Shown: in pieces, positions 39,142-43,235 of the stretch
How the letters are laid out: each line of letters starts with the position of its first letter
How positions within the stretch are numbered: position 1 is the stretch's first letter
Assembly (NCBI RefSeq): GCF_054482595.1
Contig: NZ_CM137008.1
DNA: 64,000 nucleotides
Strand: one strand, 5' to 3'
Made by a program: the position numbers and the translations under genes
Notes under the pieces: model-generated
What the model saw: only the letters and a program-made list of their open reading frames with translations
What the model was told of the DNA's origin: nothing
Database searches by the model: none

Positions 39142-39285
39142 TGGATGATAAAAAAAATAATTCCCGCCGTAGTCTGTTTGTTGCTTTGTAGTTGCACGAC
39201 CTTTCCGCAAGCTGTCGCTCCGGTAAACGGTGATGCCTCCAATTAGTTGAATTAAGGATATAATACTCGCTTTTAAGGTTGTTTC

Positions 39286-39558
39286 ATGGTCACAGTTAAC
39301 CTTCATTGTCCCCGTTGCCAGTCCGTTCAGGTTTACCGTCACGGGCAGAACCCCAAAAGACATGATCGATTCCGCGGCCGTGACTGTCACCGGGTATTTC
39401 AGCTCAGTTACTGTTACGAGCCCCGTAAACCGGGAGTTAAAGACCAAATCGCTGAAATGGCTTTCAACGGTGCCGGGGTTCGCTATACTGCCCGTACGCT
39501 GAAAATCGGCATTAATACAGTCATCCGAACTTTAAAAAACTCTCGCCACGAAGAATAA
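39286..39558 (+). CDS. insA: IS1-family InsA-like protein (zinc-finger/HTH)
   Basis: 90 aa MVTVNLHCPRCQSVQVYRHG... with CPxC...C..H and C-terminal HTH (TARTLKIGINTVIRTLKN), about 45% like classical IS1 InsA; ends just after TTTAAAAAAC slippery motif (39531..39540). Confidence 0.8.
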   Translation: MVTVNLHCPRCQSVQVYRHGQNPKRHDRFRGRDCHRVFQLSYCYEPRKPGVKDQIAEMAFNGAGVRYTARTLKIGINTVIRTLKNSRHEE

Positions 39559-39992
39559 CGTCATCCCCGGTCGCTCATGCTGATGTGGCACTCATCTGCG
39601 AACTTAGTCAGCAATGGAGCTTTGTCGGCAGTAAAGCGCGACAGCACTGGCTCTGGTACGTGTACAACACGAAAACTGGTGGTGTTCTGGCCTACACTTT
39701 TGGCCCCCGGACTGATGAAACCTGTCGTGAATTGCTGGCGCTGCTTACCCTTTTACCATCGGCATGTTGACCACTGACGAATGGGGTAGTTACGCTAGAG
39801 AGTTACCAAAGGAGAAGCATCTGACTGGTAAGATTTTTACTCAGCACATTGAGCGTAACAATCTGACCCTGAGAACCCGAATCAAACGTCTGGCCCGCAA
39901 AACCATCTGTTTCTCGAGTTCTGTAGAACTTCATGAAAAAGTCATCGGTGCTTTTATCGAAAATATATGTTCTACTAATTGGAGTCATCACC
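39540..39992 (+). pseudogene. insB: IS1-family insB transposase ORF, disrupted by a 1-nt frameshift
   Basis: InsB-like sequence is split between two frames: ...ALICELSQQWSFVGSKARQHWLWYVYN...ELLALLTLLPSAC* (frame of 39585) and ...LPFTIGMLTTDEWGSYARELPKEKHLTGKIFTQHIERNNLTLRTRIKRLARKTICFSSSVELHEKVIG (frame of 39764); switch occurs at C-run 39748..39750. Confidence 0.7.
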
Positions 39993-40047
39993 CTTCTGAT
40001 GAGCTTTCCTTGGATGATTACCAGACTGAATACACAGCCAAAGATTT

Positions 40048-40371
40048 TTACCTCATTCTGCTCTTTTTTCTCAAATGACATATATTATATTTTACATCAT
40101 ATTCATAGGCATATGACATTCCCCCGCCCCCCATTATGTCATTGTGGGTTGATGTTGGGCTTTCATAAAAAAATACATCTTTTTTTGAACTAGCATTAAT
40201 TATATTTACTTTATATATTAAAATATTTTCTCCATCTGGAAATATTTTAGCCACACAATATAAAGCAGCTAAATCCGAATTACTTAAAAATACATTGTCA
40301 TCACTCATAACTCCAGCCATTAAATGACTGGAGACTAAAGCAAGGAAATAACAACATTGTATTGCCTTCAT
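40048..40371 (-). CDS. Candidate immunity protein for the adjacent Rhs C-terminal toxin (predicted signal peptide)
   Basis: Small ORF immediately downstream (2 nt gap) of the Rhs-CT stop; likely start MKAIQCCYFLALVSSHLMAGV... (hydrophobic N-terminus); AT-rich; classic toxin-immunity arrangement. Confidence 0.55.
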   Translation of the reverse strand: MKAIQCCYFLALVSSHLMAGVMSDDNVFLSNSDLAALYCVAKIFPDGENILIYKVNIINASSKKDVFFYESPTSTHNDIMGGGGMSYAYEYDVKYNICHLRKKSRMR

Positions 40372-40372
40372 T

Positions 40373-41413
40373 TTAATTACTCCCTTGCCTGATAATTGTA
40401 ACTCCATTCCCTTTAGCTTTGGGATTATATTTTAGATAGGTGTTATTTGGTGTTCCCAAGTAACTACTGTATTCTTTTTTTCCCATTCCATTCATATAAG
40501 AATTCGTTAAATCTTTGCTTGAAAAATTTAGACTATCATAAACATCATTTTCTTTTGTTACTTTATTTCCTTTATCGTCAGAGTAAAAACCGTGAGTGTG
40601 ATAATCGCCTACTCTCTCTGAACCTTCAGGGCATTTTATATTTCGCAAGTCTACACTATCATTATCATTTGAACTTATCGGATTCATGGGAAAATATTCA
40701 CCTTGCTTCTTACATATTAGTCCACCATATTCTTTAATCTCGTTAATTGATTCTCCATTACACATTGCCAATGCAAATATTCCAATATCATCTATATTTT
40801 TTGATTTAAATTCATATAATCCCAATGGATCCATGCCATTCACCGGGCTCAGCGGATATGTATACAGGTTCCATCCCCCCTTCAGCCCAATCGGATCCTG
40901 AGTGATATACCGCCCCTGCAGCGGGTCATAATAGCGGTGGCGGTTGTAATACAGGCCGGACTCCTCATCATACTGCTGACCCGGCAGGCGGATGAGCTGC
41001 TGCAGCTGGTGCGGGTTCTCTTCATTCAGCAGGTTGCCCCATTCATCGTATTCTGCGCACCATTCTGTAGCCCCTTCCGTGCTGATAAGCGCCAGCGGCA
41101 GGCCGCGATGGTCGCAGTGGTACAGGTGGATTTTTCGCGCCGGCGTGTACACCGGGTCCATCTGGTTTTGCATCTGCTCCACCGTCAGGCCGCACGATGC
41201 CAGCCAGCGGCGACTTTCCTCACTCACCCGGTCAGCCAGGATTTCACTTTCCAGCCGGTCGAGCATCTGCACCAGCACCGGCGGGAACACCACACTGCCA
41301 CCGTCTTCGCCGCCGGACTGCTGAAGCGCATCCGCCAGGCTGCGGCGCTGCGTTTTCGCCAGCTCACCGGTGGCGGTTTCAACCCTGATGAGTGGCGTGA
41401 AGCCAGGGCAAGA
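40373..41413 (-). CDS. Rhs C-terminal fragment: end of Rhs core (…PxxxxDPxGL) fused to a polymorphic C-terminal toxin domain of unassigned type; lacks the N-terminal ~1100 codons
   Basis: Open frame from stop at 41414..41416 reads [32 protein letters not shown]...[40 protein letters not shown]...[21 protein letters not shown]...[45 protein letters not shown] followed by ~150 aa non-conserved tail; track ORF 40373..41293 is the part after an internal GTG. Confidence 0.8.
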
Positions 41414-42550
41414 TTACGAAAGCCCGCTCCCCGCAAGGACTGACGCCAGATAGTTTCTGTCCATGGCTGCTTTTCGCATCTTACGTCTTAACCCTGCCTT
41501 GAATACCTTATCATTCGTCAAAATATTAATAGCAATGTGCCGTATCCCTGAAAATAATTCTGCTGCATTTCCTCTTCTTATTTTGCAGTCGTCTTCATTC
41601 ATTACCACGTCCAGACGCCAGTGCAGCTTATTCTCCACGTGCCAGTGATTTCGGATCGCTGTGGCGAATTTCTCAGCGGTTAAATCAGCAGAACTGATAT
41701 AATATCTGACCGTCATTTCTGGCTCTTTCTTTTGCTCTGCTATTATGGACCGAAAGGAGACTGCCACGCATAATTTCTTCAGCCCTTTCCATTCAAACGT
41801 GAAATCAATAAGTTCATCAGGGACATCGCAAACAATATGAAGACGGATTTCTTCTCTGCCGTGACTCTTTTCACTAATTGCGTAACTGTCATGCTCTGGA
41901 TTATTTAATTCTTTCAGCGGAAATTTTTCCTCAAAGGCTTTATTAAGCCGCCCCTGGTTACCTTTTACCGCGAATAAATAATCACCGCCCTGTTTTTGTA
42001 TCTTCTCTGCGATATCTTTCTGGCAACCCATCGCATCAGTTGTGATAATTTTCCCTTTAATATCCAGCATGTTAAGAAGTTCAGGGATAGCTGTAATCTC
42101 ATTAGATTTCTCATCCGTCTTGATCTGTCCGATGACCAGACTGTGCATTGTTGAGAACGCACTAATGACATGAATCGCTCCCCTGCGGCGACTCTTGTCA
42201 TAAGAATGCCGGAGCGTTTTTCCATCAATTGCAATGACGTCTTTATCATCTGAAGAATGACAATCACGCATCCAGTTAATAAAGCACTCATGAAATTTTG
42301 TAGGGCTGATACAGGATACAACTCTGGCAATGGTATCGTGAACAGGAATACCATTTTCAAAATCACCATATTGCTTCAAAAAATCGAGATGTGTTTCCCC
42401 AAAATCCTCTATATCTTCCCAACCTTCTGCACCCGAAATAACGGCACAAATAGTCAACAGTAGAATATCTGATAATTTATGTTCCACTTTCTAGGCTTGT
42501 CTGTAATCGGGGATAATAGAAATATGTTCCATCAATTTTTTAAGTTCCAT
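41414..42550 (-). mobile_element. H-repeat-associated (ISAs1-family) transposase gene, with N-terminal in-frame amber codon
   Basis: Track ORF 41414..42487 ([43 protein letters not shown]...) is the H-rpt/ISAs1 transposase; upstream in-frame reading gives MELKKLMEHISIIPDYRQA-TAG-K, i.e. the expected Trp codon is TAG at 42491..42493. Confidence 0.8.
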
Positions 42551-42653
42551 TTTGTTCTCCTTAATTATACAAGGAGTATTTGATCATGTATAAGCAATAA
42601 AAGACAGCTTTAGGTAATGAGGAATATCTCAATTTTTAAACATAAAATGCGAA

Positions 42654-43076
42654 TTATTTAGTACAAAAAGTGTACTTCTGATGATCTTTCCCTGGAAACA
42701 GGTGCTCAAAATACAGGCTTCTGCCGCCGTTATCACTGAGTATCAGTGTGTTATCGCGCAGCTGTAAGCGGATATCCGCAGGCATTTTCCAGCCGGGGCC
42801 GAGGCTCCCCACCGGCGCGGGCGTTTTTGTCCGATAACTGCTGTAGGTGCGGGAGAGAATGAACGGCAGCGGGGCGGGCAGGGCGATGTCGGTTTCACCG
42901 GGAAGGACCTTTGCACCCAGCAGCGGATTGACCGGATGGCCGGACGTCACCCCGCCGGGGCACACCGAACAGGCCACGCCGGTGGGGGCACCGATGCGCA
43001 CCCCGGCTGAACCCTGGACAATGCTACCGCCATACTGCGTCATGTCGCCCTGACGCGCCGCCGGTTTTCCGCTCAT
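42654..43076 (-). pseudogene. rhs 5' fragment encoding the N-terminal PAAR-like domain only (truncated Rhs)
   Basis: 140 aa MSGKPAARQGDMTQYGGSIVQGSAGVRIGAPTGVACSVCPGGVTSGHPVNPLLGAKVLPGETDIALPAPLPFILSRTYSSYRTKTPAPVGSLGPGWKMPADIRLQLRDNTLILSDNGGRSLYFEHLFPG... = canonical Rhs N-terminus, then diverges and stops. Confidence 0.8.
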
Positions 43077-43194
43077 CGTAAAATCCTTTTGAAATAAATA
43101 AGAACCAGAAGCCTAGCGCCAGTCAACAACAGGAAATGATAATGAGTTAACACCCCGGAATTTTTCAGAATTTATAAAAGGCAAATTACAGGCA

Positions 43195-43222
43195 CAAAAA
43201 AAGCGCCGTGCGGCGCTTTTTT
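43195..43222 (-). terminator. rpmE intrinsic terminator
   Basis: Minus strand hairpin aaaaaagcgccgcacggcgcttttttt downstream of rpmE stop. Confidence 0.7.
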
Positions 43223-43235
43223 CGGAAATCCGGTC

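Follow-up and report, generated by a model that had tools for sequence, protein, structure and literature searches.

A decayed allele of the yiiX-rpmE Rhs polymorphic-toxin locus of Escherichia coli, with a proposed route of formation and a proposed residual role in immunity

Rhs proteins are polymorphic toxins with a common plan, in which an N-terminal delivery region is followed by a YD-repeat shell, a DPxGL self-cleavage motif and a variable tip, and an immunity gene lies downstream (PMC2935791, PMC3482391). One of the sites catalogued for such genes is Rhs 'position 11', a clade I site flanked by yiiX and priA, in a scheme that includes a 'relic' category (Jackson et al., 2009; PMC2935791, Table 3). 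The same site, listed as region b3936-b3937, carries rhsW7 in E. coli W and EcolC_4081 in ATCC 8739 (PMC3032704, Table 6). Its counterpart in O157:H7 EDL933 is z5488, which has a DUF4329 tip, is counted among the PAAR-Rhs proteins and is described as an rhs gene outside any vgrG island (PMC7216683). Here we describe the Rhs island found at this site in a stretch of 64,000 nucleotides from contig NZ_CM137008.1 (RefSeq assembly GCF_054482595.1). This whole stretch, referred to below as the window, is part of an E. coli chromosome.

The segment is very probably a decayed allele of this known polymorphic-toxin locus, with the history and the remaining immunity role that are proposed below. The genes around it run in the order metB (- strand), metJ (38111-38473, +), yiiX (38533-39141, +), the island, rpmE (43236-43448, -) and priA (+). 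In K-12 MG1655 the spacer between yiiX and rpmE is 60 bp, as stated in the initial annotation, which placed the two genes side by side about 60 bp apart. In a direct comparison, homology to K-12 ends at window position 39142 and restarts at 43183; the island is therefore 39143-43182, 4040 bp, and is absent from K-12. An island had been proposed earlier at 39142-43235, and it is real, but the right end of that interval takes in 53 bp of rpmE terminator common to K-12. A survey of 5426 complete E. coli genomes found the K-12-type empty junction in 3244 of them, which bears out the view that the segment is an insertion relative to K-12. The components listed at the outset (an IS1-family element, an immunity candidate, an Rhs C-terminal toxin fragment, an H-repeat transposase gene and an rhs 5' fragment) are all present and in the order given, and the site was rightly held apart from the K-12 loci RhsA-E, being the classical sixth locus.

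The identification is carried by two rhs fragments on the - strand. The 3' fragment (40373-41402) comprises a core end and a toxin tip. Its core part (40817-41402) is the 3' remnant of the conserved Rhs core and corresponds to positions 1067-1261 of the RHS_core profile NF041261 (E 1.4e-114), with other matches to TIGR03696 (E 1e-23) and PF03527 (E 6e-15). It ends in the self-cleavage motif PxxxxDPxGL, reading ...DPLGL before the tip, and the NCBI Prokaryotic Genome Annotation Pipeline (PGAP) labels it 'incomplete; missing N-terminus'. The remnant is without a start codon or promoter of its own, and the longest internal open reading frame (ORF) begins at a GTG at 41293 and encodes 306 aa. The 5' fragment (42696-43076; 127 codons; 'missing C-terminus' in PGAP) has a PAAR-like N-terminus followed by DUF6531 (E 3.5e-18), and corresponds to RHS_core positions 1-131 (E 1e-82). 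Up to ...YFEHLF it shows no difference from full-length alleles, and its reading frame continues into the end of the neighbouring H-repeat to give a truncated product of 140 aa (ORF 42654-43076). The description of both translations as Rhs-like is upheld by these profile matches. The label 'PAAR fragment' stood only in part: the piece is an rhs 5' end with a strong DUF6531 match, and the literal tetrapeptide P-A-A-R occurs at residues 5-8 of its product, but the Pfam PAAR_motif matches are weak and sub-threshold (E 0.047 for residues 2-20 against model positions 51-69, and E 2.6).

A profile search with PF05593 found no YD-repeat match in either Rhs fragment, because the YD-repeat part of the gene has been deleted. 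The two NF041261 scores are 384 and 279 bits, against a cut-off of 2000 bits for full-length proteins, and core positions 132-1066 are missing; the gene is therefore a pseudogene remnant and not a functional member of the Rhs family. Full-length relatives at the same site do have a single ORF with a full-length YD-repeat core. PGAP already marks pieces of the relic as pseudogenes in 23 complete genomes.

Between the two fragments lies a complete H-repeat (H-rpt), or ISEc1, element of the ISAs1 family (41404-42695, -; 1292 bp), with a transposase ORF at 41414-42550. The transposase matches transpos_ISAs1 NF033564 (E 2.6e-125; 418 bits against a 70-bit cut-off), and the element aligns end to end with H-rptB of K-12 at 97.8% identity. 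Its terminal inverted repeats, CCAGGGMAAGAT, agree with each other in 11 of 12 positions. The transposase differs from YhhI at 4 of 378 residues, among them a change of W20 to a stop codon, and the copy is defective, its transposase knocked out by W20*. The stop is also annotated in the three divergent relics that were fetched from other genomes, and the element is near-identical in the four relic sequences examined. No target-site duplication was found at the ends of the H-rpt, where the flanks ...GCGTGAAG and AAACAGGT... are unrelated, which is consistent with deletion at one or both ends. Copies of this H-rpt at 99.8% identity or more occur only in the 23 relic genomes, and the next-best copy anywhere is 98.5% identical.

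What the element has replaced can be seen by comparison with JE86-ST05, to which the window aligns in two blocks (38504-41403 and 42691-44500 to JE86 7843-10739 and 13509-15318). The H-rpt stands in for JE86 10740-13508, that is, 2769 bp or ~924 codons, and both junctions are flush with its inverted repeats. The initial annotation had the H-rpt gene separating the two rhs fragments exactly, as these junctions confirm. It also had an ancestral full-length rhs losing about 1000 central codons at this site, which is upheld: the ~924 codons replaced relative to JE86 are near that figure, and in 1918 of the surveyed genomes the toxin tip, dsORF-f3 and IS1 occur at this site together with a long core. 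Strains with an intact rhs at this site were looked for and found, for example O157:H7 ECP19-798 and EM06-18-14.

Across the surveyed genomes the module formed by the toxin tip and the downstream gene dsORF-f3 is present in 2164-2169. In the 1918 just mentioned it continues into a contiguous core of at least 1.6-2.2 kb, usually a full-length rhs; annotated examples have an rhs of ~1394 aa running from beside rpmE to dsORF-f3 (JE86-ST05, L004; ECP19-798, L007; EM06-18-14, L008). About 150 genomes (174 minus 23) carry a complex, tip-displaced allele, in which the order is main rhs, sel1-repeat immunity gene, small orphan fragment, H-rpt, ybfB, a 1.5-kb orphan core with the f3 tip, dsORF-f3 and IS1. 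The collinear 4.6-kb structure of the window is found in 23 genomes. Overall, the locus is occupied in 40% of strains: 60% are empty, ~35% full-length, ~3% tip-displaced and 0.4% relic, and the module and the dead IS1 are common to essentially all occupied sites. The junction between H-rpt and the rhs 5' end occurs as a single piece in the 23 carriers only, and that between core and H-rpt in at least 15 of the 23, among the matches listed. The carriers, among them XH990 and O157:H16 Santai, were obtained on several continents from people, pigs, poultry, water and an otter, and differ from the window by 0-0.7%. Three of them (L009-L011) have 7-8 single-nucleotide polymorphisms (SNPs) relative to the window in the 587-bp core remnant (40817-41402), against 0-2 in the 1292-bp H-rpt. 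This clustering points to gene conversion from other Rhs cores, and the remnant appears to be still recombining.

The variable C-terminal toxin tip (40373-40816, -) encodes 147 aa and a stop codon directly after DPLGL and belongs to DUF4329, or Tox-JAB-2 (Pfam DUF4329, E 8.7e-14). DUF4329 has been equated with Tox-JAB-2, which has a signature of E, H[ST]H, S and D (Zhang et al., 2012; PMC3482391). In an alignment of the tip, EYGG, YHTH and FS..D are kept in homologues down to 38% identity, and the tip is predicted to have a JAMM-like (JAB/MPN) fold. Tox-JAB-2 was proposed to be a nuclease by Zhang et al. (PMC3482391), and an RNase claim has been relayed since (PMC7216683). The adjoining gene, dsORF-f3 (40048-40371, -), is intact and encodes 107 aa; its product name in PGAP is 'RHS element protein dsORF-f3' (WP_021557388.1 in identical genomes). 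No Pfam, NCBIfam or PDB sequence match was found for dsORF-f3, and a PDB sequence search gave nothing significant for either protein (best E 0.17 for the tip and 0.66 for dsORF-f3). The gene starts 1 nt past the toxin stop codon and is preceded by AGGGAG, a Shine-Dalgarno-like sequence. Its position makes it a candidate immunity protein for the adjoining tip. The signal peptide initially ascribed to it is a weaker label than was given, since its N-terminus is only moderately hydrophobic, with a maximum Kyte-Doolittle mean of 1.74 over 11 residues and one basic residue. In the window and the three divergent relics dsORF-f3 is intact, with the conservative substitution V27I as the single difference, and the toxin tip is likewise intact in all four relic sequences examined.

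The same gene is broken in two of the other occupied alleles. In O157:H7 ECP19-798 (L007 6001-6323), where rhs is intact at 1394 aa, dsORF-f3 is frameshifted by a change from A7 to A6 in an adenine run, and in JE86-ST05 (L004 9385-9707) it is frameshifted by the loss of one base in a T-run, with rhs frameshifted too. An intact toxin beside a broken dsORF-f3 suggests that the toxin is silent or that there is other protection besides dsORF-f3.

We propose that the relic began as the working form of the locus, which is found in about a third of E. coli. This form has one rhs of ~1394 aa, comprising a PAAR-like/DUF6531 N-terminus, the YD-repeat shell, the DPxGL self-cleavage site and the Tox-JAB-2 tip. 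It also has a translationally coupled dsORF-f3, the dead IS1 at its yiiX edge and ~106 bp of rhs upstream sequence at its rpmE edge. The ISEc1/H-rpt element would then have come to sit within rhs, and ~2.77 kb (codons ~128-1052) would have been lost flush with the ends of the element. The order of events was probably insertion into a simple full-length allele and then an adjacent deletion mediated by the insertion sequence, a route that we hold with some reserve. All 23 carriers share both junctions, so the event happened once; outside these genomes the H-rpt has no copy that reaches 99% identity, and the event was therefore single and not very recent.

With the shell and most of the delivery region gone, it follows from the anatomy that the toxin cannot be delivered. 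What such a history would leave is an N-terminal stub of 140 aa, a defective H-rpt, a promoterless core end with an intact toxin cassette, and an intact dsORF-f3. The residual role is most likely immunity only. On this proposal dsORF-f3 would protect its host against the ~35% of E. coli that still encode the tip on a full-length Rhs, and the core remnant of 587 bp would remain available for recombination, or gene conversion, with the cores of other Rhs genes.

Several observations weigh against this account. The expected intermediate, an H-rpt in an otherwise intact rhs at either breakpoint, was not found by junction queries (for the core/H-rpt junction, among the matches listed). Insertion followed by adjacent deletion can be read only from the anatomy of the locus, because H-rpt transposition has reportedly never been observed (PMC3032704). 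The identity of the core remnant to the full-length alleles is 96.6-97.4%, slightly below the 97.96% that it shows to the complex allele's orphan core. As for the proposed role in immunity, the frameshifts in O157:H7 and JE86 mean that dsORF-f3 is not universally maintained, and the relics are too similar, with 1 SNP in dsORF-f3, to reveal selection.

The nearness of the core remnant to the complex allele raises the question of whether that allele was the ancestor, which we consider rather unlikely. The relic would then have arisen by two deletions, each starting from one end of a resident H-rpt, with 4.9 kb lost from the rhs flank and 0.9 kb from the orphan flank, and its 5' and 3' fragments would never have been one ORF, the 3' fragment being already a displaced orphan tip. 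About 150 genomes do have an H-rpt that is similarly placed and oriented, with the main rhs to one side of it and the f3 orphan to the other, and against TUM14771 (L002) the window shows exactly two gaps, 5005-5927 (923 bp) and 7222-12102 (4881 bp), both flush with H-rpt. The core remnant is also marginally closest to the orphan core of L002. The H-rpt itself tells against this descent: the window copy has 95.3% identity to the complex-allele copy (95.2-95.4% across the complex copies), with 61 differences along the whole element, against 98-99% identity in the surrounding island DNA, so that the two are not orthologous, and it groups instead with the K-12 H-rptB/ISEc1 subtype (97.8%). The 5' fragment is likewise nearer to the simple allele, at 99.2% to JE86 versus 96.1% to the complex allele. 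Two independent flush deletions would be required, from an allele ~13 times rarer than the simple one. The identities of the separate segments thus conflict, gene conversion among Rhs cores appearing to blur them, and the comparison of H-rpt subtypes is the more informative. Under either route, the site once had a full-length rhs whose middle was lost. Rhs cores and H-rpt copies are also classic sites of mis-assembly, being present in a median of 5-10 places per genome, and a collapse or mis-join among them could in principle have produced the structure as an artefact. This is almost certainly not the case, as one collinear 4.6-kb match recurs in 23 complete genomes that were sequenced independently and differ in host and country, and the relic genomes show 0.3-0.7% allelic variation as well as variable flanks.

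A role other than immunity would be open to the relic if the tip and dsORF-f3 were expressed, by read-through from an H-rpt promoter or from the GTG at 41293, and formed an in-cell pair of a toxin-antitoxin-like, regulatory or RNA-regulatory kind, not a weapon. Both ORFs are intact in the four relic sequences examined. The strongest promoter-like site of the region, TATACA-17-TATAAT (10/12; 42592-42564), lies on the same strand just upstream of the H-rpt transposase ORF, and no terminator-like site was found on that strand between it and dsORF-f3. Precedents are the orphan Rhs modules of Salmonella (PMC7043789) and the RhsFint-RhsFI pair of enterohaemorrhagic E. coli (EHEC) (PMC7618764). Such a pair nevertheless seems distinctly improbable here. 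Promoter-like sites are not above the level of shuffled sequence (11 found against 8.1 +/- 3.0 expected), the divergence among relics is too small to detect selection, and the form is kept in only 23 of the 5426 genomes, with no sign of being favoured. The scan for promoters and terminators together gave no more sites than shuffled sequence, and lends no support either way to expression of the cassette. If true, this would be the first JAMM-fold Rhs tip to be assigned a role within the cell.

The remaining parts of the island are shared with other occupied alleles. Next to yiiX lies a degenerate IS1-family element (39229-39992, +), which PGAP annotates as a 'frameshifted' pseudogene of the IS1/IS1H family. 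Its insA is at 39286-39558, and an extra -1 frameshift breaks insB into two parts, 39585-39770 and 39764-40078. Three ORF pieces match NCBIfam transpos_IS1 NF033558 (E 6e-24, 1.5e-18 and 1e-15) at profile positions 1-81, 95-148 and 155-199, each under the 100-bit cut-off. The transposase is thus matched in three frames, which means one extra frameshift; the A-run at ~39531-39539 accounts for the normal programmed shift, and the second shift is a mutation. The element has IS1-like terminal repeats, GGTGATGC... and ...GGAGTCATCACC. No target-site duplication was found around the IS1, the flanking 9-mers CCGGTAAAC and CTTCTGATG being unlike. The junction from yiiX to IS1 is present in 2174 genomes, and the IS1 is a dead copy and an old, fixed part of the island, found in all ~2174 occupied alleles.

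The island opens with 86 bp (39143-39228) that separate IS1 from the stop codon of yiiX; they have no K-12 counterpart and are 98.8-100% identical across the five occupied alleles compared. At the other end, the rhs upstream region and right island edge (43077-43182, -; 106 bp) is also absent from K-12, is 100% identical in the same five alleles, and is presumed from its position to hold the promoter and leader of rhs. The base composition agrees with the partly AT-rich character initially ascribed to the segment: the guanine plus cytosine (GC) content is 60-64% in the Rhs core pieces (60.5% in the 3' core remnant), 31.1% in the toxin tip, 30.6% in dsORF-f3 and 40% in the H-rpt, against 52% for the whole window. 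A GC-rich core with an AT-rich tip and dsORF-f3 is typical of an Rhs element. The interval from metJ to priA was found to hold no vgrG, eagR or type VI secretion system gene, either in the window or in the alleles fetched, and an Rfam scan of the whole window gave no match inside the island.

Outside the island, Rfam matches at the gathering threshold are a cobalamin riboswitch (597-786, -), OxyS (8404-8513, +), the L31 ribosomal-protein leader upstream of rpmE (43455-43507, -), the ClpQY (hslVU) promoter element (48119-48176, +) and the small RNA ES036 (63361-63402, +). The neighbouring genes differ from K-12 to varying degrees. yiiX (38533-39141) has 94.6% identity, with 33 nt and 5 aa differences, and the wider flanks have 99.0% (metB-metJ) and 96.8% (rpmE-priA); the yiiX alleles of island-bearing genomes are 96-99% identical to that of the window. 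The empty and island-bearing haplotypes thus seem to diverge most beside the island, as if two old haplotypes had been maintained. The spacer between metJ and yiiX (38474-38532) is 59 bp in the window and 183 bp in K-12 and JE86-ST05. The extra ~124 bp in the latter two is a pair of REP (repetitive extragenic palindromic)-like units within the metJ terminator region.

The H-rpt of the complex allele merits a note of its own. In TUM14771 (L002 5928-7221) it is of another subtype, ~95% identical both to the window copy and to K-12 H-rptB (58-61 differences in ~1290 bp). An 8-mer, TCATTAGA, stands 4 bp outside each of its ends, and TCATTAGA may be a target duplication if the ends of that subtype lie 4 bp further out.

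The locus has a tangled nomenclature. It is probably Hill's RhsF element (Zhao and Hill, 1995), as is suggested by the PGAP label 'dsORF-f3', which follows the names that Hill gave to ORFs downstream of RhsF. The RhsF/RhsFI of recent EHEC papers was considered as the same locus and rejected, since that name refers to z0705/ECs0604, which is a different locus (PMC7618764, PMC7216683). Recent EHEC papers also call z5488 'RhsB', and in PGAP a full-length gene at this site goes by the name 'rhsC'; the classical Hill nomenclature agrees with none of these usages.

Decay of a catalogued Rhs locus, as seen here, is ordinary and of an already known kind; earlier work has described the locus at yiiX-rpmE as well as relics of Rhs genes, orphan tips and H-rpt elements. 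The import of the case lies mainly in its correct annotation. Its value is a clean population picture of one Rhs locus. The presence of an ISEc1 flush inside rhs, with 2.77 kb missing, is indirect evidence that the supposedly immobile H-rpt has moved or caused deletions. The relic strains also provide a ready-made candidate for an immunity-only genotype against a JAMM-fold toxin carried by a third of E. coli.

Compared with the published yiiX-rpmE locus, the window has in common the site, the island boundaries, IS1, dsORF-f3, the DUF4329 tip, and the rhs 5' end with its upstream region, at 96-100% identity. It differs in having an ISEc1 in place of ~924 central rhs codons, a form seen at 23 of ~2170 occupied sites. 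Like Tox-JAB-2 toxins in general, its tip matches DUF4329, carries the signature residues E / H[ST]H / S / D and is predicted to have a JAMM-like fold; the partner usually listed for these is Imm-NTF2 family 2, whereas the dsORF-f3 of the window has no match in Pfam. Another decayed Rhs with an H-rpt is RhsE of K-12, which has a 5'-truncated core with H-rptE/ydcC nearby. A closer parallel stands at the RhsC locus of G3/10 (L012 5821-7717, ybfA-ybgA), where an rhs 5' stub of ~400 bp (DUF6531) and a 222-bp core piece lie flush with an ISEc1. This genome gave the one extra match to the junction of rhs 5' end and H-rpt, and was considered as a carrier of the same relic and rejected, being independent, at the RhsC locus and with other breakpoints. 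The two relics are alike in type of decay and in mobile element. They differ in locus and breakpoints, and the G3/10 relic has no tip or immunity gene by the H-rpt and a transposase annotated as intact. Such a parallel relic shows that this kind of decay recurs.

The orphan Rhs modules of Salmonella Typhimurium, as understood in the C-terminal displacement model, have a similar make-up, in which a complete tip and its immunity gene go with a partial core and a delivery domain is lacking. Through their core homology such modules can recombine with full-length rhs genes (PMC2935791, PMC3967940, PMC7043789), whereas the window has no intact upstream rhs with which its module could recombine. Most likely it was a deletion within the gene itself that made this module an orphan, and not displacement by a newly acquired tip.

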